Positions 10,109-43,678 of a stretch of DNA of 46,188 nt are shown piece after piece (the stretch's first letter is position 1; each line of letters starts with the position of its first letter). This DNA comes from Candidatus Limnocylindrales bacterium (GTDB lineage: Bacteria > Moduliflexota > Moduliflexia > Moduliflexales > JAUQPW01). Location: contig DATMBG010000027.1 in the NCBI GenBank assembly GCA_035559535.1, forward strand, positions 1 through 46,188, written 5' to 3'. The notes under the pieces were generated by a model. The model had not been told where the DNA came from. It did no database searches and saw nothing but the letters and a program-made list of their open reading frames with translations. The translations under genes were made by a program, and so were the position numbers.

Positions 10109-10115
10109 CGACGAA

Positions 10116-10143: not shown

Positions 10144-10226
10144 TATCCGCCGAGCCAAATCGTGGTCCTGTACCCAGGACCAGGGGGGTTGAAATAATAA
10201 ATATAATTAACATAGCCATAACAGAA

Positions 10227-16764: not shown

Positions 16765-16776
16765 GGAGGTAGACCC

Positions 16777-17463
16777 ATGAGACTGGAAATTCATTTGAAA
16801 CTTAAAAGCGACGCAACCTTCGGGCGCGGGGATGGCGTGGCCGGACTGGTGGATGAGGAGGTGGAATACGATGTGGAGACCGGTTTGCCGTTCCTGCGCG
16901 GGCGTACGTTGAAAGGCCTATTAGCCGAAGAATGCGCCAACATTCTGTTTGCCCTGAATCGACAAAATTCCCCGGCATATGCCCGGTTTGAACAGGCGGC
17001 GAAGTTTCTCTTCGGGCAGGGGGGGAGTACCCTGGAAGACGATGCTTTGATGCACGTCGGCGCCGCCTTGTTGCCCCAAGAGCTGCGGGATGCCATCGAA
17101 GCAGATGTGAAGTCAGACCCGCCTCGTCTGAAGCCCGCCGAGGTTTTAGAGTCACTGACCGCCATTCGGCGTCAGACCGCCGTTGATGAAAAAACAGGCG
17201 CACCCGAGGAAGGAAGCCTGCGGTCAATGCGGGTTGTGCTGCGCGACACGCCGTTTATCGCGCGACTGGATTTTGATAGGGATCCCGATGACGTGACAAA
17301 GGCGTTACTTGCAGCCTGTGTCCTGTCTTTGCGGCGCGCGGGTACAGGGCGCAATCGTGGTCGCGGACGGCTGACTGCGCGGTTAAGGGATGAGCATGGT
17401 CACGACATCACGGATCATTGCTTTCAGGACTTTCAGCAACTCGTGAAAGGAGCGTCATCATGA
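16777..17463 (+). CDS. csm3: Type III-D Cas7/Csm3-like RAMP
   Basis: GLPFLRGRTLKGLL, RRQTAVD and G-loop AGTGRNRGRGR. Confidence 0.88.
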   Translation: MRLEIHLKLKSDATFGRGDGVAGLVDEEVEYDVETGLPFLRGRTLKGLLAEECANILFALNRQNSPAYARFEQAAKFLFGQGGSTLEDDALMHVGAALLPQELRDAIEADVKSDPPRLKPAEVLESLTAIRRQTAVDEKTGAPEEGSLRSMRVVLRDTPFIARLDFDRDPDDVTKALLAACVLSLRRAGTGRNRGRGRLTARLRDEHGHDITDHCFQDFQQLVKGASS

Positions 17464-19115: not shown

Positions 19116-20599
19116 CGAAATCATTCTGGTCACCTCAAACATCCCGGAAAATCATCTCTCGCATCGTCGTCGAGGGCGATTTGGTCCTTCAAACTCCGGC
19201 ACATTTCAGCAATGGGGATACCGATGAGCTAACCGATATGCCGCTTTTGGTTGATCCACTCGATGGCAAGACACCCTTACTTACGGGCGCTTCAGTCACC
19301 GGAGCGTTACGAAGTTATCTTCGCGAACGTGAACGGGGATATGGACAACCCGCCGATTCAAATTCAGCCAGTGTCCGGCTCTTCGGTAGTTTGAAACGAG
19401 ATGAGGAAGGTGAACAAAGCCCACTCATTGTAGAAGATGCGCTGGGTAAACCCGGAACGTTCGGTATTGAAATGAGGAACGGGGTCAGCATCGACCCTAA
19501 AAGTCGCACAGCCAGAGAGGACAGGTTATTCGACCTGCAACTGTGGCAGGCAGGTACGACCTTTCCATTACGATTCGAGCTGCTCATCCGAGAGGGTGAC
19601 AATGCTGATATTCTCAAACGTGGCCTGGCGACGGCGCTGGCCGGGTTTAATGACGGTAGCATCATGCTGGGTGCCCGCAAGCGACGCGGCTATGGACGAG
19701 TGAGCGTTTCAGGATGGCGGGTCAAAACTTATGATCTGACAAAACCTGATGGTTTGCTTGACTGGATTGAAAAGGGTGACGAACCCCTTTCAGCAGTAAC
19801 CCCAATCCAGGACATAGGTAAAGCCCTGGGTGTTACGAAGCTTGAGGACGATCGTCGTGAGTTTTTCCACATTAACGCCACCTTCGCACTAAATGGATCT
19901 CTGTTGATTCGCTCCGGCAGTGGTCAGGACGATCAAGGACCTGACATGGTACACCTGCATGCACGGCAAGCCGATGGCACCAGAAAGCCGATTTTATCTG
20001 GAACAAGTCTGGTCGGTGTACTGCGGGCACGGGCGTTGAAGATTGCCAACACGCTGGACACTCAAGACCGGGCACAAACGTTGATTGATGAAATGTTCGG
20101 AGCGGATATGGACGAAGTTCAGAAGCGCAGGCAACAGGGTAACCCCGATGCAACTCCGTTGGCCAGTCGTGTCATGGTCACCGAAATCGTTGTGCAAAAC
20201 GCCAGGACAGACCTTGTCCAAAATCGGGTCAGTATAGACCGCTTCACCGCTGGAGCGCGAGAGACGGCGCTATTCAACGAACAACCTGCCTTCGGAGGTC
20301 ATGACACGACCCTGACGGTGGATATACGATTGGTAAACCCAAAGGATTACGAAATTGGACTTCTCTTGCTGCTGCTCAAAGACCTGTGGACGGGTGACCT
20401 GCCCTTAGGCGGGGAGAGCAGTGTCGGACGGGGACGGTTGAAAGGTAACCGTGCGATTTTAACCTTCCAGGGCAGAGGTACATCCCAACGGTGGGAAATC
20501 GGGACCAACGGACAAGATCTGACCGTTATGGAAGATCGTGAAGCATTAGAAAAATTTGTTTCCGCATTGAGCTTGTATTTGAAGGGAGGGAGATCATGA
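19112..20599 (+). CDS. cas7: Cas7-Cas7 double RAMP fusion
   Basis: Two RAMP units (TGASVTGALR...LGARKRRGYG; SGTSLVGVLR...LGGESSVGRG); start ATG 19112 (ATGA overlap, AGGAGG upstream). Confidence 0.88.
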   Translation: MTKSFWSPQTSRKIISRIVVEGDLVLQTPAHFSNGDTDELTDMPLLVDPLDGKTPLLTGASVTGALRSYLRERERGYGQPADSNSASVRLFGSLKRDEEGEQSPLIVEDALGKPGTFGIEMRNGVSIDPKSRTAREDRLFDLQLWQAGTTFPLRFELLIREGDNADILKRGLATALAGFNDGSIMLGARKRRGYGRVSVSGWRVKTYDLTKPDGLLDWIEKGDEPLSAVTPIQDIGKALGVTKLEDDRREFFHINATFALNGSLLIRSGSGQDDQGPDMVHLHARQADGTRKPILSGTSLVGVLRARALKIANTLDTQDRAQTLIDEMFGADMDEVQKRRQQGNPDATPLASRVMVTEIVVQNARTDLVQNRVSIDRFTAGARETALFNEQPAFGGHDTTLTVDIRLVNPKDYEIGLLLLLLKDLWTGDLPLGGESSVGRGRLKGNRAILTFQGRGTSQRWEIGTNGQDLTVMEDREALEKFVSALSLYLKGGRS

Positions 20600-21192
20600 A
20601 ACTGGAAATTAAATCCTACCCTGCTGTCGTTCAACCGATTCCAACGGATACCATCCAGGATGTGAAAGCATGGTTACAAACCCAGGCTGTCCAATACAAG
20701 TTAAAATGGTTACTGGCCCATGCCGACGATGGTGTGATCTGGGGTAAGATAAATGACAACGGGCAACTGGTCACATCCAACGGGGTGGCACCTGAAGTAT
20801 CTCCACCGCTCCGTGCAGAAACGTTACAACAGGCACGACTGTTTGCAGAACACGCCGAACTCCTGCTCTGGCGCGACGGCGACAATCGGTGGCATGCTCG
20901 CCTGATTCGCCAGCCTGTCAACGGAGAAACACCGATATTCACCGATGCCATTGATGAACCCCAGATGCTTTGGGGTACCCACGGGGAACATCGTAACGGC
21001 TTCACCTTGCTGCGAGACGGCGCGCAAGGACTGTGCCATGCTGTGCCGATGGAATTACCTTTGGGAAAGAACCGGGAGGCCAATCCGCCATACCTGTGGG
21101 TACGACACTACATCCAGGAAGACGACAGCGGTTTTGCCCGTATTGTCGCCAGTCGGCTGGTTAAACTGAAAAACGAGGAGGGACCAAAATGA
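20596..21192 (+). CDS. csx19: Type III-D Csx19
   Basis: LLAHADDGVIWG, LQQARLF...ELLLWR, LWGT, VRHY...SRL; position between Cas7-Cas7 and Cas7-insertion. Confidence 0.88.
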   Translation: MKLEIKSYPAVVQPIPTDTIQDVKAWLQTQAVQYKLKWLLAHADDGVIWGKINDNGQLVTSNGVAPEVSPPLRAETLQQARLFAEHAELLLWRDGDNRWHARLIRQPVNGETPIFTDAIDEPQMLWGTHGEHRNGFTLLRDGAQGLCHAVPMELPLGKNREANPPYLWVRHYIQEDDSGFARIVASRLVKLKNEEGPK

Positions 21193-23717
21193 GCAACCGT
21201 ACCATCTTGAATTTACCCAGGCACAAAAATCCCGTTAACCCAAATGGCAAGCTCAAACCTAATCGCACCGCCAGCGCGCCTTACAACTTTGTGCCGTTGC
21301 CGGAAGTTGTTGTAACAGCCGTAGACCACGCCAACGATCTTCCCGACCATGATCGCTATTATCCCGATCGGCATACGGGTTATTTTGAGGTTACACTCAT
21401 GACGAAGTCGCCGCTTTACGTACGGTGTCCGTTTACCTTGCCCGAATTCCTCCGGCAAGAGCGTGGCGAGGACAAAGACAGCTCCTATCTCCAGCAAGTA
21501 AAGAACACCCCGCACTTTTTCTACACCCGTGACCCCAACCAGCCTGTCATCCCCGGTAGCAGCCTGCGCGGCATGTTACGTAGTGTGCTGGAGATTGTGA
21601 GTTACGGCAAGGTGCAATGGGTGACAGATTCCCTCAAAATCTTTTACCGCGCCGTAGCAGCAGCAAAGGACGATCCTTTAGGTGAACCGTACAGAAAAAT
21701 CATAGGCAAATTTGGAAGTAACGTCCAGGCTGGATATTTGATTAAAAAAGGGGATGAATGGTATGTTAAACCGGCTAAAAAGCCAGCAGATATGGGATGG
21801 CCGGAGAAAGGAGCCTATCTCAAGGTCAAAGAGGATAGTATTCACGATAACGCCCTACCCGGTCTTATTCGTTTTAATTCACCCCATTATCGGCCTCAAT
21901 ATCATCCTGTCAGTTTCGACGTAGACATTCGTAAAGGCAAAAAGGGTAATTTCATTACCATAACTCGTATCGGTCCATCTGATGCCGGATACCCATACCG
22001 GGGCATTCTTGTCTGCTCCGGCAATATGCGTGAAGCTGGCAGCGAAGAGGTTGTTTCCCCTCGCAAAAGGCATGCCTTAGTGTTAGAGGCAATTGAGGGA
22101 AAGAAACTTCTCAAAATCAACAATCAAGCTGTAACCGACTATCTGGATGCGTTGACTCCCTTCCAAATTGAACCACCTTTTGACCGATATAGGGGGTGTC
22201 TACGGGATGGGTATCCAATTTTTTACGTTGAAGTAAGAGGTGAAGTCTTGTTTTTCGGTCATACCCCGAACTTCAGAGTGCCGGCCTTCATCGAGAACGA
22301 CAAACGTACCGCCACACCTCTAGATTTTGTTCCCAAAGCCTTACGCTATCCTGAACATATTGACTATGCCGAGGCCCTATTTGGGTTTGTACGCACACGA
22401 CCAGAACTGGACGATATGAAGCAGCGCGGGGTTATTCAGGAAATCCCAAAGCAAGGTGATAAACACCGGGCCTATGCCGGACGTGTCTTTGTCACCGATG
22501 CTATATTGGCAGAAGGGCAATCGGACATCTGGTTCTCTCAAAATCCTATAGTACCGAGTATTCTCGCCTCACCCAAGCCGACGGCGTTTCAACACTATCT
22601 CGTACAGACGAGTGACGACAAGAACACACTCCATCACTATGGTGATAAGACGCCTGAGGAGACCGTCATTCGTGGCCACAAGCTATACTGGCACCAGGGC
22701 GACCGTACCCGACAAGATATTGAAGATCCCAACGCTCCGGCCACAAGTACTCAGCACACTCAGTTCAGACCCGTTAAACCGGGAGTAACATTTACCTTTC
22801 GCATCTATTTCGAAAATCTCTCCGATCGTGAGTTGGGCGCGCTCTGCTGGGCACTACATCCGTTAGGAAATTCTACCAGGGAATATTGCCACCATCTCGG
22901 CATGGGCAAACCATTGGGCATGGGCGCGGTGAAGCTGGAGGCCGTCCTGTACCTGACCAACCGTCCAACACGTTACGGCTCGTTATTTAACGGCGACACC
23001 TGGCAGACAGGTACTTCAAGCAGCGGCGAATCCCTGTCTGACCGTACAACCTTAGAACGGCGTACCCACGAGTTTGAGCAGCATGTTTTAGAAGTACTCA
23101 ATCCTAACACCACCTGCCAGCACCTCTATGAACTGAAGCGTATCGGCATGCTGCTCAAAATGATGGAATGGCCGGGATTTAAGGCAGTACCGCCTGTTAA
23201 CGGTCAGGCTGCTCCTAATAACTGTGTCATCACTGAAAATGGCAGGCAGCGTCCCAACACCCGATATATGATGATCGAATTGCCAGGCGTGCAGGGCACA
23301 AAGAAAAATGAATACCGTGACCGTCCCGTATTGCCTGATCCCTGTGCTTTTGATCCCCACATTGCCGAGCCAATCTCAGATACTACAAAGGTGCCCGCCA
23401 GCAAGCTGACCACACCATCCCAGGATCTAGGTTCTACACCTGCAGCAAAATCGCTAATCAAAACTACTCCAAAGGTAAGCCCGAAGGTCCAGAAACCGAA
23501 ACAAGAAGAGGTTACAACGAAGAGGGAGTGGGTCACTCTAGTAGAAGATGTTAAGGGGGGCAAAGCAAAAGTCCAAACCGAGGGAGGTGAAATCGTTTCG
23601 TGTAGCAACTTCCCTCTCTATCCGATGGGAATGGGAACCGCCGGAATGCGTTGTCGTGCCGATGTCACGCGGCAGGATGGAAAAGTACAACGTGCGATTT
23701 TTAAAGGATGGGAGTAA
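21189..23717 (+). CDS. cas7: Type III-D Cas7 with large insertion (TIGR03986-like RAMP)
   Basis: APYNFVPL, VIPGSSLRGMLR, LASPKPT, IRGHKLYWH, LGMGKPLGMGAV. Confidence 0.9.
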   Translation: MSNRTILNLPRHKNPVNPNGKLKPNRTASAPYNFVPLPEVVVTAVDHANDLPDHDRYYPDRHTGYFEVTLMTKSPLYVRCPFTLPEFLRQERGEDKDSSYLQQVKNTPHFFYTRDPNQPVIPGSSLRGMLRSVLEIVSYGKVQWVTDSLKIFYRAVAAAKDDPLGEPYRKIIGKFGSNVQAGYLIKKGDEWYVKPAKKPADMGWPEKGAYLKVKEDSIHDNALPGLIRFNSPHYRPQYHPVSFDVDIRKGKKGNFITITRIGPSDAGYPYRGILVCSGNMREAGSEEVVSPRKRHALVLEAIEGKKLLKINNQAVTDYLDALTPFQIEPPFDRYRGCLRDGYPIFYVEVRGEVLFFGHTPNFRVPAFIENDKRTATPLDFVPKALRYPEHIDYAEALFGFVRTRPELDDMKQRGVIQEIPKQGDKHRAYAGRVFVTDAILAEGQSDIWFSQNPIVPSILASPKPTAFQHYLVQTSDDKNTLHHYGDKTPEETVIRGHKLYWHQGDRTRQDIEDPNAPATSTQHTQFRPVKPGVTFTFRIYFENLSDRELGALCWALHPLGNSTREYCHHLGMGKPLGMGAVKLEAVLYLTNRPTRYGSLFNGDTWQTGTSSSGESLSDRTTLERRTHEFEQHVLEVLNPNTTCQHLYELKRIGMLLKMMEWPGFKAVPPVNGQAAPNNCVITENGRQRPNTRYMMIELPGVQGTKKNEYRDRPVLPDPCAFDPHIAEPISDTTKVPASKLTTPSQDLGSTPAAKSLIKTTPKVSPKVQKPKQEEVTTKREWVTLVEDVKGGKAKVQTEGGEIVSCSNFPLYPMGMGTAGMRCRADVTRQDGKVQRAIFKGWE

Positions 23718-23751
23718 GTATATCTGTCACATCAGTGCCCAGTAATTCTCT

Positions 23752-26298
23752 ATGCGAATCTCTATAAAAATAGGTTTTCTGGAAGATCTTGCAAATTCAC
23801 AGCCCGACATTGGGCTTGAGTGTCAAAAGCTTCTAAGGTTACTCCAAAAAACCGATGTGAGCAAATTGCAGGGTCAGGCCCCCACATTCTCTGGCTGGCG
23901 TTTGTATAAGTTAAGGTATTTTCCCTTTATACTGTTTTCACACCCTGGAAATCTCGCAGTTCTAGCCAAACTCGAAGGAAATCTTGTTTCCATATACCAC
24001 ATTTTAATTTTAAGCGATAGCAGGTGGCAGCCGCTAAGCGCAGTAAAAAAGGCACAACATAAAGCGGAGGAAGAAGCTCAAAAGAGAATTGAAGAAGAAC
24101 AACGGCGGCTTGAGATGGAGCGAGTGCAACTTAACCAGGAACAACGAAAAGTCGAGGAAGCACGTCAAAGAGTAGAAGAAACACGCAGGCAATTGGAAGA
24201 AAAAGCACGACAACTTGATCAGGAACGACGAAAGGTCGAGGAAGCGCGCTGCGAGGTGGAGGAAATACGGAAACAATTAAAAGAAGAAATCCAGCGTAAA
24301 GCAGAAGAGGAAGCACAGCAAAGGATTGAAGAAGAACAGAAAATCGAAGAGAAACCCGAACAATTAAAGGGGGGAAGGTATACTCCACTTGATCATCGAC
24401 CTCCTAGAAGATATGCAAGCACGGAAGAACATCCTGAGAAACCAGTATTGCGAGAGCCAGGACTACGGCGTCCGAAACCCGAGATCATCTGTTTGAAAAG
24501 GGCACGCCAATGGATTCTGGCCGTGGAGATACCGGTAGATCTTCTTGAAAACCCCGGTTTGACGGTACTTCAAAATGAATCACCTCTCCCGCAAGATGAA
24601 TCAGATGAAAATTACCGGTGTCTTAAAGAATTTCATGGACAGGTCGTGATCCGTTGGGAGGAAGATGGGAGTACGAGGGAGCGGCATACTACCTTTGGTG
24701 AAGAAGGCTATCTACTATTTAAACTGAATAATCAAAATGAAGGACGCTACATCCGGTCTCCTTCATTTGGATCCTATCTGGCCGTGGTTCCGGATAGTTG
24801 GGAACGTGATTTTGAGCTTTCGGGACCGCCCCCCATAGCACCGGAGCCCGTTTCCTTAGAGGGCTATCAGGCTCATTTCTATATCCTTGAGAAAGGCGAT
24901 GGCAAAAAGATCGCTTTTCGCAGCCAGGAGGGCAAGTCGGTTATAATCCAGCCCAGAGCATCCCGATTCGAACTGGTTGGGAATCTTCTAAACGATGCGA
25001 ATGAAGCTATGGGTCCTTTATTTGGAGAGAAACCCCCCCGAATCCGCTCTTTAGACGACCGCCTCCAATGGAAAGATATTGGGACCATCGTTATTGGGGA
25101 GGAGGGAATCAGAAAATTAGGATGGACCAGGCTGTTGAGTCTCGACCCAGACACTCAGGAACAGGACCTGCCTTCTGAAGTTACAGAACGGGGCGATGGC
25201 TGGTATTTTATCAGGATTTACAATCTGAAGGATGAGCTTTTAGAGAGTTTAGACTTCAGATTTATCCCCGCCTTGAAGGCTATTAGAGTACCTCCACCCT
25301 CTCCGGTTCCTACTAAGGATGGACATGAGCCTACACGGGTTGAATTCCTTCACCAGCCGGGGTGCACAGTTCAACCGTCCCGTCAATTAGAAGAGCTCGT
25401 CCAGATCGAGCGTGGAGATAACAGGACGGTACTGACCCTTCCTGCCAATCCTAACTATGATAAAACCGATTGGTTTATAAGTTCTCGAGGCACGTGTCAG
25501 ATACAGGTTACCATTCTTGTGGAAAGACTCTGGTGGGCCATTGGAGAAGAAAGCCAAATACCCTCAGAATGGAAAGCTCAAAAACTTCCTCTTACCCGTG
25601 AAGATTTCCTGGCCACATCAAGGAAAACGTTGTGGCTGAGACTTCCAAAACCACGTTGGGCAGATAAAGCTTTTGTTGGATTTAAAGAAGCAACAGCCGT
25701 ACCTTGTCCTATAAAAGTTACAGAGAGAACCATCAGTATCCCGTTACGACAGTTCTGTGATGCACAGGAGATCCAAAATATTGGCACAATTTTATTTAAT
25801 TTTTGGATTCACCATAGGGGTACAAAGTATCAAATAACCACCTGCAAGCTTACACTCAAAGCTAATTGTAGACTCTGTGAATTCTCAATTTCTACAGAAG
25901 AAGATCTATGGGATCATATTAAATCCGATCACCTGGACGCATGCTTTCGACTTTTGACTTCCGAGGAAACCCATGAAAGAATACAGGATCAAGACTCTGC
26001 TCTTCCAAGAGAAATATATAAGTGTTCTCATTGTAATTTCTATGTTGAATCCGATGATCCGAGAAATCCAACCACTGTCATGGACCGACACAGCAAAGAG
26101 AAATCTCATAAAGCAGGAGCTCCTTTAGAAATTAAAATTCTTTCTAAACCAGATGAAATCCGAGAGGTTCTCTCCAAAAACCCCCCCCATCTTTATGAAT
26201 GCAAGTGGTGTCGTTATCTTTTACGTAACGCTATTCCAAGAGATAGGATAGGGCATTTGAGGGAAAACCATAAAAATATGCTTTACGTGTTTCAATAA
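23752..26298 (+). CDS. Uncharacterised 848-aa multidomain protein (possible RelE-like N-terminus, coiled coil, beta-rich core, three C2H2-like fingers)
   Basis: Long ORF co-oriented between cas7 and the helicase; EQRK-rich repeats; CxxC...H...H motifs at the C-terminus. Confidence 0.75.
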   Translation: MRISIKIGFLEDLANSQPDIGLECQKLLRLLQKTDVSKLQGQAPTFSGWRLYKLRYFPFILFSHPGNLAVLAKLEGNLVSIYHILILSDSRWQPLSAVKKAQHKAEEEAQKRIEEEQRRLEMERVQLNQEQRKVEEARQRVEETRRQLEEKARQLDQERRKVEEARCEVEEIRKQLKEEIQRKAEEEAQQRIEEEQKIEEKPEQLKGGRYTPLDHRPPRRYASTEEHPEKPVLREPGLRRPKPEIICLKRARQWILAVEIPVDLLENPGLTVLQNESPLPQDESDENYRCLKEFHGQVVIRWEEDGSTRERHTTFGEEGYLLFKLNNQNEGRYIRSPSFGSYLAVVPDSWERDFELSGPPPIAPEPVSLEGYQAHFYILEKGDGKKIAFRSQEGKSVIIQPRASRFELVGNLLNDANEAMGPLFGEKPPRIRSLDDRLQWKDIGTIVIGEEGIRKLGWTRLLSLDPDTQEQDLPSEVTERGDGWYFIRIYNLKDELLESLDFRFIPALKAIRVPPPSPVPTKDGHEPTRVEFLHQPGCTVQPSRQLEELVQIERGDNRTVLTLPANPNYDKTDWFISSRGTCQIQVTILVERLWWAIGEESQIPSEWKAQKLPLTREDFLATSRKTLWLRLPKPRWADKAFVGFKEATAVPCPIKVTERTISIPLRQFCDAQEIQNIGTILFNFWIHHRGTKYQITTCKLTLKANCRLCEFSISTEEDLWDHIKSDHLDACFRLLTSEETHERIQDQDSALPREIYKCSHCNFYVESDDPRNPTTVMDRHSKEKSHKAGAPLEIKILSKPDEIREVLSKNPPHLYECKWCRYLLRNAIPRDRIGHLRENHKNMLYVFQ

Positions 26299-26315
26299 AG
26301 GAGTGAGGATTTCTA

Positions 26316-29300
26316 ATGGATCTCATAACGTTATCCCAACGAATTGAAGAGAGATATCGGCATTATCTCAAAACCACCTTTTATTTTAAGGATCCAGATC
26401 TCCGGGCATCTTTTGAAGAAGCCCTTCAGTCAGGATATTTGAGCAAAGGGCCGTACCTTGAGGCTACTCCCGTTTTCCAGCGGGCCCAGAGGCCAAGAGA
26501 TCTGTTTCAGAACCTCCTTGGATTTGAGCCTGATGAAGCACTCTTGAGGGCCGTGCAGGGAGATAGACCCCTTTACCGACATCAAGAAGCCGCCATTCGA
26601 GGAGCCTTTGAAGGACGTAATATCATTGTGGCCACAGGAACAGGAAGTGGTAAGACCGAGTCTTTTCTTTATCCTGTCTTGCTTCACCTTTACCGAGAAT
26701 TTCAGTCCGGTCAATTGGGTCCGGGGGTGCGGGCTTTGATTCTCTATCCCATGAATGCTCTGGCAAATGATCAGCGGGAGCGTTTGGGTGAAATTTGCAA
26801 ACAGCTTGAATACGAGAAATCATCCTTCAGAGTTACCTTCGGACAGTATATCGGAGAAACACCGGAAGATGAAAACGACACCCGACGTCGTGCCGTCGAG
26901 CGCCTGGCAAATCGGCTACCCGGCGAGCTGGTTTTACGCTCTGAAATGCGAAGCCAACCTCCCCATATTCTGCTCACCAACTACTCCATGCTGGAATATC
27001 TACTGCTCAGGCCGGATGATAGTCCCCTCTTTGATCATGGACGTGCTCGATGGTGGACGTTCCTGATACTCGACGAAGCCCATCAATATCGAGGCTCGAA
27101 GGGTATTGAGATGGCCATGCTCCTGCGACGCCTCAAACAGAGACTCAGAGAGGGTGGGCGTCTGGAGCCTTTTCGGTGTATTGCAACGAGCGCCACGCTG
27201 GCTGAAGGAGAAAAGGATCGTGAGGCTGTGGCAAAGTTTGCCTCTAACCTGTTTGGTGAGGAATTTTGCACGAAAGACGTAATTCTTGGAGAGACTGAAC
27301 CCATCCCAGAGTCAGGGATAGAATATCTTCCCGCACATGTTTATGGACTTCTACGGGAAGCCCTGCAGGGACGAATTCCAGAAACCAGGAACCAGCTTGC
27401 CGGGTTGGCGAATAGACTGGAAATAGATCTCCCGGATAGCGAGGATTTATCCTATACGGTTGGAAGGATTCTGCAACACGATATTCGATCCACGAAGCTA
27501 CGTCGTCTTATTACAGGCAATCCTATGGAAGCTCGGGAAGTTGCCGAAGAGGTCTTTGCTGACCTGTCGGATACAGAACGCGTACCTGCCCTATCTGAAT
27601 TGATTGAGCTTCTCCTCCAGGCAAGAGATCCTGCTTCCCATGCCCCGCTCTTATCGGTACGCTACCATCTGTTCTTACGTTCGCTTGAAGGCGCATTTGT
27701 TTCCTACTGGCCGCAAAAGAAGGTCTTCCTGGATCGTAAAGGGAAGGATCAGGAGATTAAAGCTTTTGAAGTTGCACTGTGTCGGGAATGCGGTCAACAC
27801 TACTTTATAGGCCCAAAAAATCTCAAAGGTGGTAAACTGGAGGAAGCGATCCGCGACCCGGGTCAAATTGATTTTGGAGCTACTTTCTTACGCCCCCAAG
27901 AGGATCGTGAGGAAGATGACATAGAGGAGGATTATAGTGGGGTTGTCAACAGACAGATACTCCAGCTTTGCGTTCAGTGCGGCGAGATAGGACGAAGTAA
28001 ACCAGGATGTAACCATGACAATTTAATCCAGGTAGTCCAGGAAGAATCTCCAAAGGATGAAGATAGAGCCGATCAGGTAGCGAAGTGTGGCGCTTGCGGA
28101 TACAGTGCGGCCGGTCGTGATCCTGTGAGAGAAGTAATCCATGGAGCCGATGGCCCCAATGCGGTTATTGCTACAACTCTTTATCAGAGCCTTCCAGAGA
28201 AACGGAAAAAAATACTGGCATTTACCGATGGGCGTCAGGAAGCCGCCTTTTTTGCCTGGTATCTTGAAGATTCCTATAGAGACATTCTGAACCGCAACTT
28301 GATTTTGAGGGTGGTTCAGAGGCTGAGTCCCCATGTATCGGAAGGTCTGTCCCTGCGAGAACTGGCTACAAACCTACGAGATCTCTTTATAGAGAGAAGG
28401 ATTTTTCCTCCTACCACAGGTAGCTTAGACTTGAGCCGTGAGGCCTGGCTGAGACTTTATCGGGAGTTTCTCACCGATGAATCGAGAATTTCCTTAGAGG
28501 GCGTGGGTCTGGTTCGGTGGCTGGTAAAATGGCCAGTCTGGTTCCAGATTCCTGAGATTCTCAGGAATCCCCCCTGGTCGTTAACCGAACAAGAAGCCTG
28601 GGATTTACTATTTATTCTCCTGGATTTTATGAGGGCCGAAAGGGCCCTTGAACTTCGAACTGAGCCGGGTATTTCCGTAAATTGGAGTGATCTTAAACTC
28701 CAAGGAGGGCAAACTCGGGTTCGAATCGGTGAACCTAAAAAGCAAAAGGATGTACGGAGCTGGGATGGAAAAACGGGACGGCGTGCCCAGTTTTTGACCA
28801 GGCTTCTGATAAGGAACCATCTTTCCATAGATCAGGCAATCCCTTGGGCTATTGAAACTCTGAGAGCAATCTGGGAAACTCTTAAAGAATTTGATCAGTC
28901 AGCTTCTCCCCAAGACCGTTTACTTCTTCCTGTTGAAGATGCCCGGAGGCTTAATCCCGATTGGTGGAGAGTGCATCTCGTTACCCAGCATCATAAAATT
29001 TTCCGATGTGACAGGTGTGGGCGTCTTCAGACCGTATCGGTTCGTAGAGTCTGCCCAAGGCCTCGTTGCCTGGGCACGCTTAATGGGATACAACCGGATA
29101 ACCTTGAGCCTAATCACTACCGTTGGTTATATGAAGAGGATCTAGCCGGTCCTATGCGCGTGGAAGAGCACACCGCACAATTGGACCATGGGAAAGCACG
29201 GGAATTTCAGGATGAGTTCAAAGAAGGTAGAATCCATGTTCTGAGCTGTTCTACAACCTTTGAAGTGGGTGTAGACTTAGGGGATCTCGACACCATCTTT

Positions 29301-30977
29301 CTCCGCAATGTACCGCCGGAGGCCTTTAACTATGTACAGCGGGTGGGTCGGTCGGGACGCCGGAGTGGGTCTCCTGGATTTGCTATTACCTATTGTCGTC
29401 GCGGACCCCACGACCTTTATCACTTTGCTGAACCCAGGCGCATACTGAGTGGTAAGGTTCGACCTCCTGTGTTGAGTCTACGAAATGAAAAGATAATTAC
29501 TCGCCATATCACGGCAACCGCCTTATCTTATTTCTTTCGAAACTTTAAGGATAAGTTCAAGACCGTTGAAAATTTTTTCAATGACCTAAGTCATCCTTCG
29601 GGTGTTGCCGACTTTAAAACTTTCTTAAATGAGCAGGAAGCTAACCTTAAGAAATCTTTACAGGCTATTGTTCCACCCGAAATAGCGGGCCGGGTTGGCT
29701 TAGAGAACAAAGATTGGATGGCAAAGGTTGCCGGAGAGAAAAGTAGACTGTTTCTTGCTGAAGCGGAGGTTTCCAGTGATTATCAAAACGTGATTGAGCT
29801 TGAAAAGAGTGCAAGGGAAAACAGAAATTATCGAACTGCCGAATGGGCCCGGAAGCGAGCCGATACCATTGCTAAAGAGGAGTTTCTTTCGTTTCTTTCC
29901 CGTAAGGCCGTGATCCCCAAGTATGGCTTTCCGGTAGATGTGGTGGAACTAGATACACAAAGTATTCAGCATGGCGAAGCGAAGGAAATTTCCCTCCAGA
30001 GGGACTTAGCCATTGCCGTTTCTGAGTTTGCCCCAACGAGCAAGCTGATTGCCAACAAAAAGATATGGACTTCCTACGGGTTAAAGCGGGTTGCCGGGCA
30101 GGAATGGGATCGCTGGTGGTATGCCCGGTGCCCCATCCATAACCGTTTTGAACGTAAACCCTGGCGGGATGAAAAACGGCTGCCATCTTTTAATAAATGC
30201 TGTGCGCATATGTTTCCCGCACAGTACCTCGATCCGAGATTTGGCTTTGTGACCAATCGAGAGAAACCGGAAGAGCCTAAAAGGCGACCCGATAAGGTCT
30301 TTACCACGCGGCCCTACTTTGCAGGTTTTAAAGACAAGGAAGGCAACCCGATTAACTTTGGAAGTATTCGTTTAACGACGGCCACCCCCGGTTATCTGGT
30401 GGTGCTTTGCGAAGGCCGCCGTGGGAGAGGGTTCTACATCTGTGAAAGATGTGGTGCTGGATTTCAACAACCCAAAAAGAAACATGAGACCTCCTACGGG
30501 AGTGAATGTTCCGGAACGCTGGTACAGGTTTCTCTGGGGCATGAGTTTGTCACGGATGTACTTCAGCTTCAGTTTCATGCCAAAACTGAAGAGGCTACAC
30601 AGCCCGTCTGGTTCGCATACTCATTGGCTTATGCCCTGGTCGAAGGGGCTGCCTCAGAAGTCTTAGAGGTACCCTCTACGGATCTTAACGCAACCGTAGC
30701 CTATAGTAGTCAGACAGATTCTCTACCTCCCATTATCCTCTACGATAATGTACCGGGTGGAGCAGGCCTTGTCGCCCAACTGGAGAAAAAAGAAATGCTT
30801 CAAGCCTGTCTGGAAGCTGCCTGGAAAAGGGTTAGTGGGAACTGTGGCTGCGATGAGGGTACGAGTTGTTATGGATGTTTGAGAAGCTACCGAAATCAGT
30901 TCGCCCATCCCTATCTTCAACGGGGTCCTGTCCTGCGTTACTTGAAAACTATGCTCTTGGAGTGGGAAAGTGATTAA
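26316..30977 (+). CDS. Large DEAD/DEAH-box helicase with C-terminal DUF1998 (DruE/DrmB-related superfamily)
   Basis: TGTGSGKTE, YPMNALANDQ, TNYSMLEYLL, DEAH, SAT, EHTAQL, TTFEVGVD, QRVGRSGR; ILYDNVPGGAG...CGCDEGTSCYGCL; SD AAGGAG. Confidence 0.9.
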   Translation: MDLITLSQRIEERYRHYLKTTFYFKDPDLRASFEEALQSGYLSKGPYLEATPVFQRAQRPRDLFQNLLGFEPDEALLRAVQGDRPLYRHQEAAIRGAFEGRNIIVATGTGSGKTESFLYPVLLHLYREFQSGQLGPGVRALILYPMNALANDQRERLGEICKQLEYEKSSFRVTFGQYIGETPEDENDTRRRAVERLANRLPGELVLRSEMRSQPPHILLTNYSMLEYLLLRPDDSPLFDHGRARWWTFLILDEAHQYRGSKGIEMAMLLRRLKQRLREGGRLEPFRCIATSATLAEGEKDREAVAKFASNLFGEEFCTKDVILGETEPIPESGIEYLPAHVYGLLREALQGRIPETRNQLAGLANRLEIDLPDSEDLSYTVGRILQHDIRSTKLRRLITGNPMEAREVAEEVFADLSDTERVPALSELIELLLQARDPASHAPLLSVRYHLFLRSLEGAFVSYWPQKKVFLDRKGKDQEIKAFEVALCRECGQHYFIGPKNLKGGKLEEAIRDPGQIDFGATFLRPQEDREEDDIEEDYSGVVNRQILQLCVQCGEIGRSKPGCNHDNLIQVVQEESPKDEDRADQVAKCGACGYSAAGRDPVREVIHGADGPNAVIATTLYQSLPEKRKKILAFTDGRQEAAFFAWYLEDSYRDILNRNLILRVVQRLSPHVSEGLSLRELATNLRDLFIERRIFPPTTGSLDLSREAWLRLYREFLTDESRISLEGVGLVRWLVKWPVWFQIPEILRNPPWSLTEQEAWDLLFILLDFMRAERALELRTEPGISVNWSDLKLQGGQTRVRIGEPKKQKDVRSWDGKTGRRAQFLTRLLIRNHLSIDQAIPWAIETLRAIWETLKEFDQSASPQDRLLLPVEDARRLNPDWWRVHLVTQHHKIFRCDRCGRLQTVSVRRVCPRPRCLGTLNGIQPDNLEPNHYRWLYEEDLAGPMRVEEHTAQLDHGKAREFQDEFKEGRIHVLSCSTTFEVGVDLGDLDTIFLRNVPPEAFNYVQRVGRSGRRSGSPGFAITYCRRGPHDLYHFAEPRRILSGKVRPPVLSLRNEKIITRHITATALSYFFRNFKDKFKTVENFFNDLSHPSGVADFKTFLNEQEANLKKSLQAIVPPEIAGRVGLENKDWMAKVAGEKSRLFLAEAEVSSDYQNVIELEKSARENRNYRTAEWARKRADTIAKEEFLSFLSRKAVIPKYGFPVDVVELDTQSIQHGEAKEISLQRDLAIAVSEFAPTSKLIANKKIWTSYGLKRVAGQEWDRWWYARCPIHNRFERKPWRDEKRLPSFNKCCAHMFPAQYLDPRFGFVTNREKPEEPKRRPDKVFTTRPYFAGFKDKEGNPINFGSIRLTTATPGYLVVLCEGRRGRGFYICERCGAGFQQPKKKHETSYGSECSGTLVQVSLGHEFVTDVLQLQFHAKTEEATQPVWFAYSLAYALVEGAASEVLEVPSTDLNATVAYSSQTDSLPPIILYDNVPGGAGLVAQLEKKEMLQACLEAAWKRVSGNCGCDEGTSCYGCLRSYRNQFAHPYLQRGPVLRYLKTMLLEWESD

Positions 30978-31055
30978 ATGGCCTTCTATAACTTAAGGAC
31001 ATATGAATTTTGTCTTTTAACTTAACCTTTTTGTAAAAATCGGCACGAACTGGAA

Positions 31056-31292
31056 TTAGGTTGACGCTGGAGTGAATTCCCGAACGTGCAGAATCTCTTG
31101 ACCGCTCATGGGTCGAATATCCGCTCGACTGAGCGTCAGGAGCGCCACGGTTTTACCCTCTGCTGTGACAAACTCGACCTCGAAGGCTTCGCCGTCCCTG
31201 TAGCGATGCACTACGGCTCCTACATCACCTTGTTTCAGGCCGTGCTCTTCAATGTCATGGGTGAGAACGACCGTATCTAATTCTTGAATCAT
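31056..31292 (-). CDS. DUF4926-domain protein
   Basis: MIQELDTVVLTHDI...GLKQGDVGAVVH...AFEVEF...G.T pattern; SD GAGGAGG. Confidence 0.85.
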   Translation of the reverse strand: MIQELDTVVLTHDIEEHGLKQGDVGAVVHRYRDGEAFEVEFVTAEGKTVALLTLSRADIRPMSGQEILHVREFTPAST

Positions 31293-31358
31293 ATTATCCT
31301 CCTCTTAACAGTTATTGATGAACAGTGAACAGACAGTCATTGGTTCATTTCAACCCAC

Positions 31359-31691
31359 TCATATTGGATACGCGGTTACGAAGCGAGGACGGTTTTGACC
31401 TGCGTCAATGATCCAGACTGTTTGTATCCGTACGGTGCCCCCTCCCGGGGTTTGGAGTGCTCCTTCAAGGATATATTTTATGCCGTGTGGTGACGAAGTT
31501 GCTTCTTTAACATCTTCGGAACGAGCAATGGCTATTAGGCCTTGCTCCAATATGTTTATATTTGTTTCATCGAAGCCAAGGGTACGGAAGAACCTGGCTT
31601 TCGATCTACCAACAGGGTGTGTTTCCGATAATAGATAATCTCTCAATTTTGACGGCGAAATGTAAGCACTTTCCCGATTAGGGAGCTTCAT
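31359..31691 (-). CDS. DUF6883-domain protein (usual partner of DUF4926; predicted toxin-like)
   Basis: KLRDYLLSETHPVGRSKARFF...TVWIID...PRFVTAYP pattern. Confidence 0.8.
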   Translation of the reverse strand: MKLPNRESAYISPSKLRDYLLSETHPVGRSKARFFRTLGFDETNINILEQGLIAIARSEDVKEATSSPHGIKYILEGALQTPGGGTVRIQTVWIIDAGQNRPRFVTAYPI

Positions 31692-31995
31692 GTCGGGCTC
31701 TCACTGTAGTAGAACCATAAAAATAAAGTACACTGGTTGGTTTGCCTAAACCTGATCAAACCTTCCAGGGAACTGAAAAAACCCAGTTCCTTATGTCTAA
31801 GCTTCTCAAGCCGGTCATGAGCTTCAGTCATGAGCTTATCGAAAGGGCACGATCTCAAATTCGCTGCAAGAGAACCGGGTCAGGAGAAGGTTCGGGTTTC
31901 TCCCTAAGTTCTAAGAACAAGGTTTAACTTATCCCTTGTTACCTTTATGAGGAAATTATAACACGATAAATTGAGGGCGTCAAGTTCGGACAAAA

Positions 31996-32110
31996 TCGGG
32001 TAATTACGACTAATGCCATGCTGGCCGAGAGAGAAAAGGACCATGAGATCGTGGCAAGGCTTGCCTCTGACCTGTTGGTGAGGAATTTTGCACGAAAGAT
32101 GTAATCCTTG
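31996..32110 (+). pseudogene. Decayed 115-bp copy of part of the DUF1998 helicase (27173-27288)
   Basis: Colinear match including a 25-nt exact block TTGGTGAGGAATTTTGCACGAAAGA; 1-nt deletion shifts the frame. Confidence 0.85.
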
Positions 32111-32646
32111 AGCGGTATTTCAAGACCTCTTGAGGTATGCGAAACCATGTCCCAGATTATCATTAACCCTCAGTTAAAATTAAGTAAATAATTGGTACAA
32201 CCTTTTGTTGAGGTTTGTGTCCAACTTTACAAACATCTGGTACAAACCTGTAACAGGCTGAGGAACTCTAAAGGGGATTCGACCTTCCGCCCCTCAACTT
32301 CCCATTCCTGTGGACAGGGAAAGGATTGAGGGGTGGGGATGGGGAGGGATCACTTGTAGTATTTGCAGGCTATGTTTATGTTGACCTCCTAGGGTATCAG
32401 GGGAGTTGGGTCTGATTCATGAATAGAAACTAAGGATTGATCCGTCCTCCTTTTTTACCTATCCCTTCCGCCTGAAATTTGCGTTATTTCGGCGGACCTA
32501 TTTGACTTTTATCTCTTGAATCGTCTTACCGGAAGTTAAAGGAAAACCCTTCATATTTTTACGAAGGAAAAGATTGTAAAGAGGAATTAGCACCCTGATG
32601 TTAATCCGATAACCATCTCGACTCTGTTAAATTACGTTTTAGCCTT

Positions 32647-32789
32647 AAAAGCTCCGTAGGAGCCATCGGTTTGTAGCCATGTCTTATCGAATACCAGGCT
32701 TCGTGGGGGGTGGCTTGTGAAACACGGAACTAAAGGATCCTGGGGTGAGACGCCAGGATTTCCACACAGGTCGCCCTGCCGGAGCTTTT
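32647..32789. repeat. Inverted-repeat element of a second REP/MITE family
   Basis: AAAAGCTCCG (32647-32656) / CGGAGCTTTT (32780-32789). Confidence 0.55.
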
Positions 32790-32839
32790 TCGGTAATTTA
32801 ACAGGGTCGCGTTATAATCCAAACAGAAAATTCTATCTA

Positions 32840-32876
32840 AGTTCACCCTGGGGTTTACTGTGAACTGTTTCACAGT
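32840..32876. promoter_or_regulatory. Overlapping inverted repeats, candidate WYL operator
   Basis: AGTTCAC-N13-GTGAACT (32840-32866) and ACTGTGAA-N4-TTCACAGT (32857-32876), about 90 nt before the WYL start. Confidence 0.45.
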
Positions 32877-32968
32877 TGATTCTCCCCCTTATCGTCTTTT
32901 ATCTTAACTTTAATTACTAGTGGGGCCAGGGGAATCCAAAGATTTCTCAAGGCCCTTCAAGGAGTATT

Positions 32969-33970
32969 GTGGAAGGTCGGAATCGTTTTCTCAGACTCTT
33001 CGAGCTTATGACCGAAATTCGGGGAAACCCGCGTCAAACCCCTGAGCAGATTGCCAGGTATTTCGGTATCTCGAAAACCCAATTCTATAAAGATAAGGCG
33101 GAACTGGAGAAATTAAATTTTCAATTTAAATACAATCGCTTAACCCGTTCCTTTGAAATAGAAAAAGATCCTTTTATTCCTACAGGTCATCTCACTCTGA
33201 CCGAGATTTCAGCGTTGATTATGAGTGTTCGTCAACTCTTTGATATGAGCGATTACATCATTACCTATCGGGCCATTAAAGCCATTAAAAAGATTGTGGC
33301 CAATTACCCGGACACCCTAGTGCGTCATAAACTCGAAAGGGTTTTGGAAGACGCCATTTATAATGAAGGCTATGGCTGTAAGGAAACGATCCTGAACGCC
33401 CTGGAATACGCCATGGAGCATCGCAAAATTGTAAAAATTATCTACATTTCTCCCTATGATGACTTTCAAAAGATCACCCATGACATCGATGTCTACATGA
33501 TTTTCTTTAGAAGGCGTTCTCTATATATGGATGCTTATTGTAGAACTACTGGAGACATCCGTACCTATCGACTCAGCCGGGTATTAAAGATTGAACCCTG
33601 GCCCGAACCCAATCGGTTTGAAGTTCGGGAAGATTATTCATTTAGAAATCGTCACAGAGATAGCTTTTCGGTATTTACGGGAGAGCGAAAGACCAGGGTG
33701 AAGATTCGATTCAACAAAGAGAAGGCTTTTTATATCCAAGAGGTTAAATGGCATCCCTCGGAGAGAATTGAAGCTTTGAAGGATGGGGGGATTCTCTACG
33801 AAGTCGAAGTTGCCGAACCGAGGGAAGTCATCTGGTGGGTTCGTCAATGGGGACCCGATGCAGAAGTATTAGAACCTGAGGAGATGCGGCAGTATATGCT
33901 GAACATGGCGAGAAGGGAGGTGGAGATGTACGGGCAGAATCCAGAAGACGGAGATAAAAATTTAAGATAA
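32969..33970 (+). CDS. Second WYL-domain transcriptional regulator
   Basis: HTH (IARYFGISKTQFYKD), LYMDAYC...IRTYRLSRV, WHPSE, WGPDAEVLEPEEMR; GTG start with GGAG. Confidence 0.92.
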   Translation: MEGRNRFLRLFELMTEIRGNPRQTPEQIARYFGISKTQFYKDKAELEKLNFQFKYNRLTRSFEIEKDPFIPTGHLTLTEISALIMSVRQLFDMSDYIITYRAIKAIKKIVANYPDTLVRHKLERVLEDAIYNEGYGCKETILNALEYAMEHRKIVKIIYISPYDDFQKITHDIDVYMIFFRRRSLYMDAYCRTTGDIRTYRLSRVLKIEPWPEPNRFEVREDYSFRNRHRDSFSVFTGERKTRVKIRFNKEKAFYIQEVKWHPSERIEALKDGGILYEVEVAEPREVIWWVRQWGPDAEVLEPEEMRQYMLNMARREVEMYGQNPEDGDKNLR

Positions 33971-34004
33971 GTAACCTGTGAGGACATAAAGTGAGGTAAG
34001 AAAA

Positions 34005-34496
34005 ATGAGAAAACCAAGAAGTCAACATTATATCTTTGCACATAAAATTTTACCATCCTTATTTCATGCCGACCCGGTAAAGTTTATCACAGCCTTGAGT
34101 AGTCATAGAAATGACCTTTTACATTTGTTGTGGGCACATGCAGGCACAAATATGGAAGAGTCAGACCTAGTAGCTGCAGACAACTTAGATTATGAGATCA
34201 GAAAATTGGATGAAGGAACGATCATAGTACTTATTACACTCCCGACTCCCCAAGCTGTTGCAGAGGCGTATTTTGTTGCAATGATTTATCGATCTTGGAA
34301 GAAAGAAATTTTCTGTACCCAGGAAGCTGTTACCCGTTTTATTACTTTGGAATACAGCTTCAATTTGCTAAATGATCTCCCAGGAACAGTTCTCGGTGAA
34401 TGGACAGTTGACGGTACACATATAAACTTTGGTACAGGTCCCGAACCTATTTTAGAAGACTTCTTTGAAACGGTTTGGGGTTTAATGACCGAATAA
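34005..34496 (+). CDS. Hypothetical protein, 163 aa
   Basis: SD GAGGT; protein-like motifs HYIFAH, LPTP...EAYF, RFITLE, LGEWT.DGTH.NFG.GP. Confidence 0.7.
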   Translation: MRKPRSQHYIFAHKILPSLFHADPVKFITALSSHRNDLLHLLWAHAGTNMEESDLVAADNLDYEIRKLDEGTIIVLITLPTPQAVAEAYFVAMIYRSWKKEIFCTQEAVTRFITLEYSFNLLNDLPGTVLGEWTVDGTHINFGTGPEPILEDFFETVWGLMTE

Positions 34497-34556
34497 AGCT
34501 TTGATTTCATTTTATCCACTTGCTTTATTAAGTAAAAACATCAGGATTAACTGACC

Positions 34557-36713: not shown

Positions 36714-36799
36714 GTTATGAAGGGGTGAGTAAGGGGTAAGAACCTCCTCCTCCCTGTGAGCGGAAGGTTCTTATCCAGGACTCTGGACCTCTACTTTTT

Positions 36800-40027: not shown

Positions 40028-40169
40028 AGCCGAAAAAAAGTGTCGGATCTTCCGAAGGGAGAGTCCTCCGGGTTTGATAAGTTTTATGGAGAAAGGTGAA
40101 ACAACCGATTCTCGACAGAGAGACGTAAGGGTTTGATTTAGGGAAATTTTCGATCAAGGAGGAAAAAAT

Positions 40170-41198: not shown

Positions 41199-41206
41199 GG
41201 GAGATT

Positions 41207-41905: not shown

Positions 41906-41941
41906 ACATTCAGGATTGAGAATTCAATAGGGAGCAAAGGT

Positions 41942-43548: not shown

Positions 43549-43587
43549 CAGGAATAAACTTTCCGGTATTCGTGCAACCGGGGACGG

Positions 43588-43651: not shown

Positions 43652-43678
43652 CCTACTAGATCTTATTTTTTGATTCTT

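Follow-up and report, generated by a model that had tools for sequence, protein, structure and literature searches.

The window analysed here is a contig stretch of 46,188 nucleotides (nt) from the genome of a Candidatus Limnocylindrales bacterium (assembly GCA_035559535.1, contig DATMBG010000027.1). Our subject is a pair of adjacent genes within it, encoding a modular partner protein of 848 amino acids (aa), P0001, and a superfamily 2 (SF2) helicase of 1553 aa, P0002. With moderate confidence, we propose that the two genes make up a module of the Druantia lineage that is self-contained and horizontally mobile, and that its role is most likely anti-phage. An initial annotation of this DNA had placed the pair 34 nt behind a type III-D CRISPR operon, with 17 nt between the two genes, and the list of open reading frames (ORFs) confirms the coordinates and both distances. 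The pair and its parts are laid out as follows.

23718..23751, plus strand: 34-nt gap separating the partner gene from the last cas7 gene of III-D, with no listed promoter-like or terminator-like site
23752..26298, plus strand: partner gene P0001, 848-aa ORF without Pfam, NCBIfam or PADLOC assignment
23752..24036, plus strand: N-terminal region of P0001 (aa 1-95), common only to the closest relatives in the alignment
24037..24366, plus strand: charged Glu/Arg/Lys-rich, coiled-coil-like spacer of P0001 (aa 96-205), variable in length across the family, with weak SMC/TolA/JetC-type matches only
24127..24285, plus strand: 84-nt tandem repeat (Tandem Repeats Finder; 1.9 copies, 76% matches), corresponding to repeated heptad-like units of the spacer
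24481..25857, plus strand: conserved core of P0001 (aa 244-702), about five predicted tandem immunoglobulin (Ig)/FN3-like beta-sandwich domains
25858..26295, plus strand: C-terminal head of P0001 (aa 703-848), three predicted beta-beta-alpha C2H2-type zinc fingers
26299..26315, plus strand: 17-nt spacer between P0001 and P0002, with AGGAG at 26299-26303, 12 nt 5' of the helicase ATG
26316..30977, plus strand: helicase gene P0002, 1553-aa ORF, compact DruE-clade SF2 helicase of the YprA/MrfA family
26577..27206, plus strand: RecA1/DEAD domain (aa 88-297; Pfam PF00270, E 4.5e-21), with GSGKT at 110, DEAH at 253 and SAT at 292
27780..28097, plus strand: Cys-rich insert (aa 489-594) carrying three CxxC pairs that do not vary in an alignment of 21 helicases
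29151..29363, plus strand: RecA2/Helicase_C domain (aa 946-1016; Pfam PF00271, E 1.6e-09), with motif VI QRVGRSGR at 1008
30636..30881, plus strand: MZB (DUF1998) zinc-binding domain (aa 1441-1522; Pfam PF09369, E 7.7e-11)

The helicase clade and its gene pairing

The intact SF2 motifs, extra CxxC pairs and C-terminal DUF1998 domain described for P0002 by the initial annotation were all recovered by a motif scan and by Pfam. Six CxxC pairs are present, at residues 489, 552, 591, 898, 1376 and 1518, and C489, C492, C552, C565, C591 and C594 do not vary in the 21-helicase alignment. The four DruE groups of PADLOC score about equally on P0002 (418–616 bits): DruE1 at 616 bits (E 6.6e-185), DruE3 at 554 bits (E 2.2e-166), DruE2 at 479 bits (E 1.2e-143) and DruE4 at 418 bits (E 2.5e-125). 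As a control, the type III-A DruE of an E. coli plasmid scored 2180 bits on its own DruE3 model, covering 4–2051. The NCBIfam helicase models all fell far below their own cut-offs on P0002. Its best sequence match in the PDB is 9tu7_Y, a 2108-aa 'DEAD/DEAH box helicase' (E 1.3e-73), with further matches to 9wae, a 1970-aa helicase, and to YprA (6znp_A, E 1.4e-21).

P0002 is a compact DruE-like helicase without a nuclease domain, because the DruE3 profile (PDLC00037) is matched no further than position 1677 of its 2055, because the protein ends 31 residues past the MZB domain and because the fold of its C-terminal part resembles only MrfA and DrmB. This last point comes from an AlphaFold2 model of aa 1041–1553 (pLDDT, or predicted local distance difference test, 82.0), for which Foldseek at E ≤ 0.001 returned MrfA (6znp, E 3.9e-8) and DrmB (7s9v_B, E 2e-5), and no nuclease fold.

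The partner gene and the helicase gene travel together. We counted 118 loci, including several near-identical ones, of which 38 come from genomes (one per species) and the remainder are the best 80 of 201 metagenome matches. In 33 of the 38 genome loci a P0002-like gene comes directly after the partner gene on the same strand, the other five being contig ends or tiny fragments. Over all 118, the pair is present in 105, the contig ends within 900 nt in 12 and one holds a 58-aa fragment, so that the same order, with the partner immediately upstream of the helicase, is found in 105 of 106 testable loci. The pairing is far beyond chance, and the fear that the partner might not be conserved beside helicase homologues has not come true. 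A third conserved gene was not found when 335 flanking ORFs were clustered, the largest cluster being present in 6 loci.

The helicases of 20 intact loci measure 1541–1595 aa and are 48.7–69.0% identical to P0002, in hosts of more than 10 phyla. Among the sequences compared, the next relatives lie on a C. butyricum plasmid (30.7% identity) and a Pseudanabaena plasmid (27%), and E. coli DruE is about 28% identical to P0002 over its N-terminal 630 residues only. In a quick IQ-TREE run with four outgroups, the 21 partner-linked helicases form one clade (Shimodaira-Hasegawa-like approximate likelihood-ratio test, SH-aLRT, 99; stem length 1.54). A plasmid collection held no close relative of P0002: its 676 matches are all below 60% identity, the best being 32.8%. 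The distribution is patchy, and within the window's phylum the partner occurs in two of nine species genomes, both of the window's genus. One of the same-genus genomes, a metagenome-assembled genome (MAG) at locus L001 (12578-19055), carries a helicase orthologue that is broken up into two or more ORFs (of 432 and 896 aa) and lacks its start.

The genes around the pair, three per side and 123 ORFs in all, were classified with Pfam and PADLOC at 27 loci with flanks. At 16 of the 27 loci this neighbourhood contains known or candidate defence genes, and they include parts of type I, IIG and III restriction-modification systems, ThsB, GmrSD, several PADLOC candidate (PDC) genes and an RmrA-like regulator, as well as, at L002, a DrmMI-like methylase and a second YprA-type helicase. 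Genes resembling UvrD/PcrA (L024), ClpB (L033) and DEDDh (L035) were left out of this count. The arrangement at L002 (549-9817, a Thermoflexus MAG) merits description in its own right: a DrmMI/type IIG-like methylase of 1412 aa and a distant YprA/MZB helicase of 1678 aa (DruE3 E 7e-103) are encoded just upstream, apparently an ARMADA- or DISARM-like system stacked on the pair.

A modular partner family and its relation to DruH

Pfam, NCBIfam and PADLOC returned merely coiled-coil or low-complexity noise for P0001, over aa 95–205. An AlphaFold2 model of aa 230–848, based on 119 sequences (mean pLDDT 92.1; predicted template modelling score 0.78), predicts an all-beta array of about five Ig/FN3-like sandwiches (aa ~244–702) followed by three beta-beta-alpha zinc fingers. 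The ligands C706/C709/H722/H727 and C817/C820/H835/H840 of the outer fingers are invariant in all 35 finger-type rows, and those of the middle finger nearly so (C758 in 35/35, C761 in 33/35, H780 in 35/35). Foldseek and VIA-align comparisons of the model recovered generic Ig/FN3 repeats only, and an ESM Atlas feature search gave a top score of 0.76, under the lead level.

At least 201 homologues of P0001 occur in a collection of 5.8 billion proteins, in Chloroflexota, Acidobacteriota, Planctomycetota, Armatimonadota and other hosts; no relative of the partner was found on viral contigs. Members range from about 690 to 890 aa and share one build, in which an N-terminal helix (in most of them) and a charged spacer of variable length precede the conserved Ig core, and a variable head closes the protein. 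Among the 120 listed members that make up our census, the head is Ribosomal_S9-like in 58, consists of two or three zinc fingers in 37 and is of another kind in 25, these last being truncated or ending in a helical module some 130 aa long. When 23 further partners were scanned with Pfam, five had Ribosomal_S9 (49–62 bits against a cut-off of 22.5) and three, two of them near-identical, had Ribosomal_L13e (30–31.5 bits; cut-off 24.9). Pfam assigns no S9 domain to P0001 itself. The S9 match is a C-terminal domain (688-787 in P0054, 706-806 in P0098) that covers profile positions 1–94 of 121, in proteins of 741–821 aa, and a profile of the family finds uS9 chains among PDB sequences (9h90_I at E 6e-4, more chains at E 0.016 to 0.12). 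We considered whether the family could be ribosomal protein uS9 and ruled this out, S9 being only a partial C-terminal domain here and not the stand-alone protein of about 130 aa.

Public records nonetheless name several S9-headed members (P0098, P0046, P0049 and others) 'uS9 family ribosomal protein' or 'ribosomal protein S9'. These are predicted membrane-anchored proteins of about 800 aa encoded beside a helicase, and the name is a spreading annotation error.

With a 19-residue Kyte-Doolittle mean of at least 1.8 as the test for a membrane helix, 96 of the 120 members have a hydrophobic helix at the N-terminus, with Arg/Lys behind it. Judged by their sequences, most family members thus look tethered at the cytoplasmic face of the membrane, a location favoured because the positive residues after the helix, the Cys/His fingers and the ribosomal-type heads all fit it. 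Rare fusions extend the core at its N-terminal side, each known from a single record: an SMC/Rad50-like ATPase in P0188 (2177 aa), a 900-aa region of no assignment in P0187 and a DUF1156 methylase-type N-terminus in P0063. These long forms could be gene-calling artefacts.

The initial annotation had suggested a Druantia-III-like or else undescribed system of helicase and partner, and this suggestion holds up well: the helicase fits DruE profiles and the partner fits no DruH or DruA-D profile. No PADLOC model of these proteins, the DruH3 models such as PDLC00038-41 and 44-50 included, matched P0001 or 15 diverse family members at E ≤ 1, whereas E. coli DruH, as a positive control, matches ten DruH models. 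In the precomputed Pfam annotation, the DruH domains PF27201 (YjiT_N) and PF27205 (YjiT_2nd) occur in none of the 120 listed family members; of 45 listed DruH relatives, 43 have both, one has PF27205 alone and one has neither. An hhalign comparison of the family gave a probability of 0.5% against E. coli DruH and of 0.7% against an alignment of 30 DruH sequences. By sequence and profile comparison, the partner is a different family from DruH. Genome scans with the DruH model PDLC00038 matched nothing in the window's genome, 0/9 genomes of its phylum, 0/4 genomes in a separate scan and 0/251 genomes in the phylum of another genome, G009; the control matched 0/14 genomes too, so these blanks carry no information. 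A weak, model-based hint of kinship comes from the Ig-domain chains that both have in common and from an ESM Atlas structure search, in which two of ten rows are STY4851/ECs_5259 (DruH) clusters, with a template modelling (TM) score of 0.26–0.27 and an Atlas model pLDDT of 0.58.

Several recent reports allow a closer comparison. DruE is a 3'-to-5' helicase with PLD nuclease domains (10.64898/2026.05.12.722862; 10.64898/2026.05.13.724313). DruH is described in one report as binding single-stranded DNA at the interface of Ig5 and the C-terminal domain, with inhibition by ATP (10.64898/2026.05.12.722862), and in another as a 3'-5' exonuclease whose C-terminal domain touches the DruE stalk (10.64898/2026.05.13.724313). 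Bell et al. split type III into III-A and 'type III-like' or III-B systems, the helicases of the latter being mostly nuclease-less (10.1101/2025.09.15.676423). In M. smegmatis, a DruH of 1132 aa and a DruE of 1667 aa interact (PMC13316683).

The pair described here resembles the DruH-DruE pair of Druantia III-A in E. coli and P. aeruginosa in being a two-gene operon, in which the partner gene precedes that of a YprA/MZB helicase of the DruE family; both partners combine tandem Ig-like domains with a predicted nucleic-acid-binding C-terminal part, and both pairs sit in defence islands. Compared with the III-A helicase, P0002 is shorter by some 550 aa and has neither of the two PLD nuclease domains found at the C-terminus of DruE, and P0001 lies outside the DruH (STY4851/ECs_5259, YjiT_N/YjiT_2nd) family. 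P0001 also lacks the N-terminal helical (exonuclease) and C-terminal helical domains of DruH; in their place, its family has a coiled coil or a membrane anchor, and heads of the zinc-finger, uS9 or eL13 type. The III-B or 'type III-like' systems (Bell et al., 2025; MSMEG_1253/1254 of M. smegmatis) have in common with the pair a compact DruE that lacks PLD domains and one partner gene upstream of it, but the partner in M. smegmatis is the 1132-aa DruH, with a 1667-aa helicase, and here it is an 848-aa protein of another family.

A closer parallel is the C. butyricum plasmid pair at L041, which encodes a compact 1559-aa DruE with the same PADLOC profile pattern. This is the nearest helicase outside the clade among those compared (the 30.7% relative), and its upstream partner also matches no DruH model; that 1069-aa protein, however, does not resemble the P0001 family at profile level (hhalign probability 0.1%). 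With MrfA/YprA and with DrmA-DrmB of DISARM, P0002 has the SF2 core and the MZB (DUF1998) zinc module in common, but those helicases are shorter (MrfA, 751 aa) or split (DrmA/DrmB), and their partners are the MrfB exonuclease or DrmC/DrmMI, whereas the pair here has neither methylase nor nuclease. The Pseudanabaena plasmid (L042:2364-12240) holds another unclassified DruE arrangement, in which a 2082-aa DruE-like helicase (DruE1 E 6.6e-231) lies behind 898- and 310-aa genes that PADLOC does not match, beside a WYL gene and a RecQ-family helicase.

Proposed function and alternative readings

We infer a defence function from the family to which the helicase belongs, the setting in defence islands, a patchy distribution and strong conservation across phyla. 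The best-supported reading of the partner is that it is functionally analogous to DruH, combining an Ig scaffold with a nucleic-acid-binding head. P0001 would then hold the place that DruH has in type III Druantia, coming from another family. In most relatives the membrane helix and the Arg/Lys residues behind it would tether the partner to the cytoplasmic membrane face, and the head (zinc fingers here; uS9-like, eL13-like or helical elsewhere) would bind phage-derived nucleic acid. By analogy, the Ig array might dock on the helicase and license it, and the helicase might load on single-stranded or forked DNA and unwind it 3'-to-5'. Neither protein has a recognisable nuclease, and clearance would therefore come from unwinding itself or from host nucleases.

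Several observations weigh against this proposal. The literature searched holds no tested member of the helicase clade or of the partner family. The partner has no detectable sequence or profile similarity to DruH, and the mechanistic analogy may fail because it lacks the N-terminal nuclease-type and C-terminal helical domains of DruH. Type III-A, according to one report, uses the nuclease activities of both DruH and DruE (10.64898/2026.05.13.724313), and the pair here is nuclease-less. P0001 itself reaches a best 19-residue Kyte-Doolittle mean of 1.47, under the threshold of 1.8, and so has no confident membrane helix. At 11 of the 27 loci there is no recognised defence neighbour, the 118 loci include several near-identical entries, and at L001, the closest relative, the reading frame of the helicase is interrupted, which may be a sequencing or assembly error rather than decay since contig coverage is 1.5x. 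Finally, heads of the uS9-like and eL13-like kinds suggest a link to RNA or the ribosome more than to DNA.

This last observation underlies the idea that the module acts on RNA or the ribosome, the uS9- and eL13-like heads docking on or sensing rRNA or ribosomes and the helicase serving as a remodeller of RNA or R-loops. The S9 and L13e heads do score above their gathering cut-offs, S9 heads are found in almost half of the census, the family profile retrieves uS9 chains, and C2H2 fingers can bind RNA as well. We nevertheless consider this idea quite unlikely. The characterised helicase relatives (MrfA, DrmAB and DruE) all act on DNA, basic rRNA-binding folds are often reused for general nucleic-acid binding, and translation-related genes do not recur as neighbours. 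Moreover, the S9 heads lack the uS9 C-terminal tail, because the match covers only the first 94 of 121 profile positions, and in uS9 it is this tail that reaches the ribosomal P site. An ordinary Druantia III-B system, in which the partner would be a highly diverged DruH orthologue minus its terminal helical domains, would explain the identical gene order (partner first, then DruE), the compact DruE, which has no PLD domains and so fits the published picture of III-B (10.64898/2026.05.13.724758; Bell et al.), the tandem Ig-like domains of both partners and the DruH clusters among the ESM Atlas rows, whose TM scores and model quality are low. It is unlikely, if worth keeping in view, given that DruH models that recognise E. 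coli DruH ten times over miss P0001 and its 15 relatives, that the two YjiT domains of nearly all listed DruH relatives occur nowhere in the family and that hhalign sees no relation. The partners are also shorter (~690–890 aa) than DruH (~1100–1130 aa in E. coli and M. smegmatis) and differ from it in their N-terminal (membrane anchor or coiled coil) and C-terminal (zinc fingers, uS9, eL13) modules, and the 418–616 bits of P0002 on DruE1-4 contrast with the 2180 bits of a true III-A DruE on its own model. It is highly improbable that the pair is a housekeeping MrfA/YprA-type DNA-repair helicase with an accessory protein and no part in immunity: P0002 does match YprA/MrfA in sequence and in its C-terminal fold, but DruE profiles (616 bits) fit it far better than any repair-type model, the NCBIfam helicase models staying far below their cut-offs. 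A patchy distribution (two of nine genomes of the phylum), helicases 49–69% identical across unrelated phyla and defence genes nearby at 16 of 27 loci also speak against a repair role.

The initial annotation had further proposed that the pair might be co-regulated with, or ancillary to, CRISPR. Only locally is this plausible. The 34-nt gap carries no promoter or terminator signal (a scan of 23000-33000 found 13 promoter-like and 11 terminator-like sites against 11.2 and 10.9 expected from shuffles, none of them in the gap), and in this genome the pair is probably co-transcribed with the III-D effector operon, at its 3' end. Elsewhere the pair is independent of CRISPR. Among the 27 loci, Pfam and PADLOC detected cas neighbours only at L001, from the window's genus, where the pair lies behind a III-D cas7 as in the window, and at L028, from a Bacillota MAG. 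There, a 286-aa partner (L028:10043-10903) that corresponds to P0001 aa 562–845, that is, to the last Ig domain or domains and the zinc fingers, lies directly behind cmr6 in the order cmr4-cmr5-cmr6 and is followed by the helicase; this short partner represents either a naturally minimal version or the remnant of a truncation. BLAST with 27 proteins (the cas proteins of the window and L028, a WYL regulator and two unannotated ORFs upstream of the L028 cmr genes), together with a simple array finder, revealed no further CRISPR case in the 118 loci, a search that is weak for distant cas families. With cas neighbours at two of 27 loci, an assignment as a type III CRISPR-Cas accessory gene by recurrent linkage was rejected.

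A direct role as a type III accessory, co-transcribed with the effector genes and acting once target RNA has been recognised, for instance by unwinding invader DNA that is being transcribed, could draw on the same-strand position 34 nt behind the III-D cas7 in both the window and L001, with no promoter or terminator signal above chance, and on the place of the short L028 partner and its helicase behind the cmr genes. In the quick tree, P0002 also groups with the helicases of L028 and L003 (SH-aLRT 96). But L003, from this same sub-clade, has no cas neighbour, the window has no CRISPR array, and elsewhere the module adjoins many other types of defence genes. We regard such a role as very unlikely, keeping a small probability for a functional tie because the pair follows two type III subtypes within one helicase sub-clade. 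The link is best read as local co-location with probable co-transcription.

A more inclusive version of the proposed Druantia-lineage module, which we put forward tentatively and hold to be rather unlikely as a whole, treats the partner as a modular infection sensor, a membrane-tethered Ig stalk whose swappable uS9, eL13 or C2H2 heads would license a nuclease-free DruE helicase. The same stalk would also be fused to SMC/Rad50-like ATPase and DUF1156 methylase N-terminal modules, and the result would be a form of immunity within the Druantia lineage in which invaders are cleared although the system itself brings no nuclease. One sub-clade would be plugged into the 3' end of type III effector operons (III-D here, III-B in L028), where the module may act with CRISPR.

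We rate the pair as a new DruE-helicase variant of the Druantia lineage with a new partner family, and not as categorically new. The literature searched contains no published description of the partner family. In the available text of Bell et al., 'transmembrane' and 'DruH' do not occur and 'zinc finger' occurs once, about the helicase; in that of 10.64898/2026.05.13.724758, neither 'transmembrane' nor 'ribosomal' occurs. The helicases of the clade, MBI2907076.1, BCX01608.1, MCX7731751.1, WP_324201340.1 and WP_376793269.1 among them, may well be included in the ~52,000 YprA homologues of Bell et al. Druantia is among the commonest helicase-based defences, and the type III mechanism was solved only in 2026, in all cases with DruH as the partner. 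Here, a cohesive, nuclease-less DruE-like clade from at least a dozen phyla is strictly coupled to a partner family other than DruH, and PADLOC-type rules that require DruH would miss such a system because standard profile sets do not recognise the partner. The exchangeable heads and the putative membrane anchor make the family a natural test case for what the non-helicase subunit detects and where in the cell it acts, and also for the question of whether protection by a DruE helicase requires a nuclease. The finding also corrects the misannotation of family members as 'uS9 family ribosomal protein' in public records.

The surrounding CRISPR super-locus

The pair is embedded in a CRISPR super-locus, which we delineated by running PADLOC and Pfam on the 23 other window ORFs of at least 150 aa.

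5538-6497: WYL regulator (PADLOC/Pfam)
6800-13833: type I-B-like module with cas8b, cas7, cas5 and cas3 (PADLOC/Pfam)
13830-15086: CARF-PD-(D/E)xK effector (PADLOC/Pfam)
15091-23717: type III-D effector operon with cas10, cas7, csx10, cas7, csx19 and cas7 (PADLOC/Pfam)
21189..23717: type III-D Cas7 ORF preceding the pair (PADLOC Cas7_IIId, E 1e-188)
32969-44698: second WYL gene and type I-D module with cas6, cas4 and cas1 (PADLOC/Pfam)

At E ≤ 1e-5, PADLOC assigned cas and WYL models to these 23 ORFs and left four without a match, in agreement with the earlier observation that DrmA, methylase and DruA-D genes are missing from the window; the Cas4 ORF gave two weak matches to the DruK nuclease (E ~1e-5). 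Repeat and array searches found no CRISPR array inside the window. Three effector modules (I-B-like, III-D and I-D) and two WYL regulators thus stand on one 46-kb contig, between 5538 and 44698, with adaptation genes only at the I-D end.

Within the III-D operon, the csx10 ORF (17418-19115) and the next cas7 ORF (18914-20599) overlap by about 200 nt as listed, and the true start of this cas7 probably lies further downstream because its PADLOC match starts at residue 76. The helicase gene and the second WYL gene are separated by about 2 kb that is gene-poor and holds two small adjacent minus-strand ORFs of 78 and 110 aa (31056-31292 and 31359-31691). The layout of this couple (31056-31691) is toxin-antitoxin-like, and a strong promoter-like site (11/12 matches) lies on the same strand at 31983-31955. 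Downstream of cas1, at 45124-45844, there are five irregularly spaced copies of a 28-nt GC-rich palindromic repeat (CGTAGGGGCGCAAGGCCTTGCGCCCGTA and variants), which resemble repetitive extragenic palindromic (REP)-type elements and not a CRISPR array.

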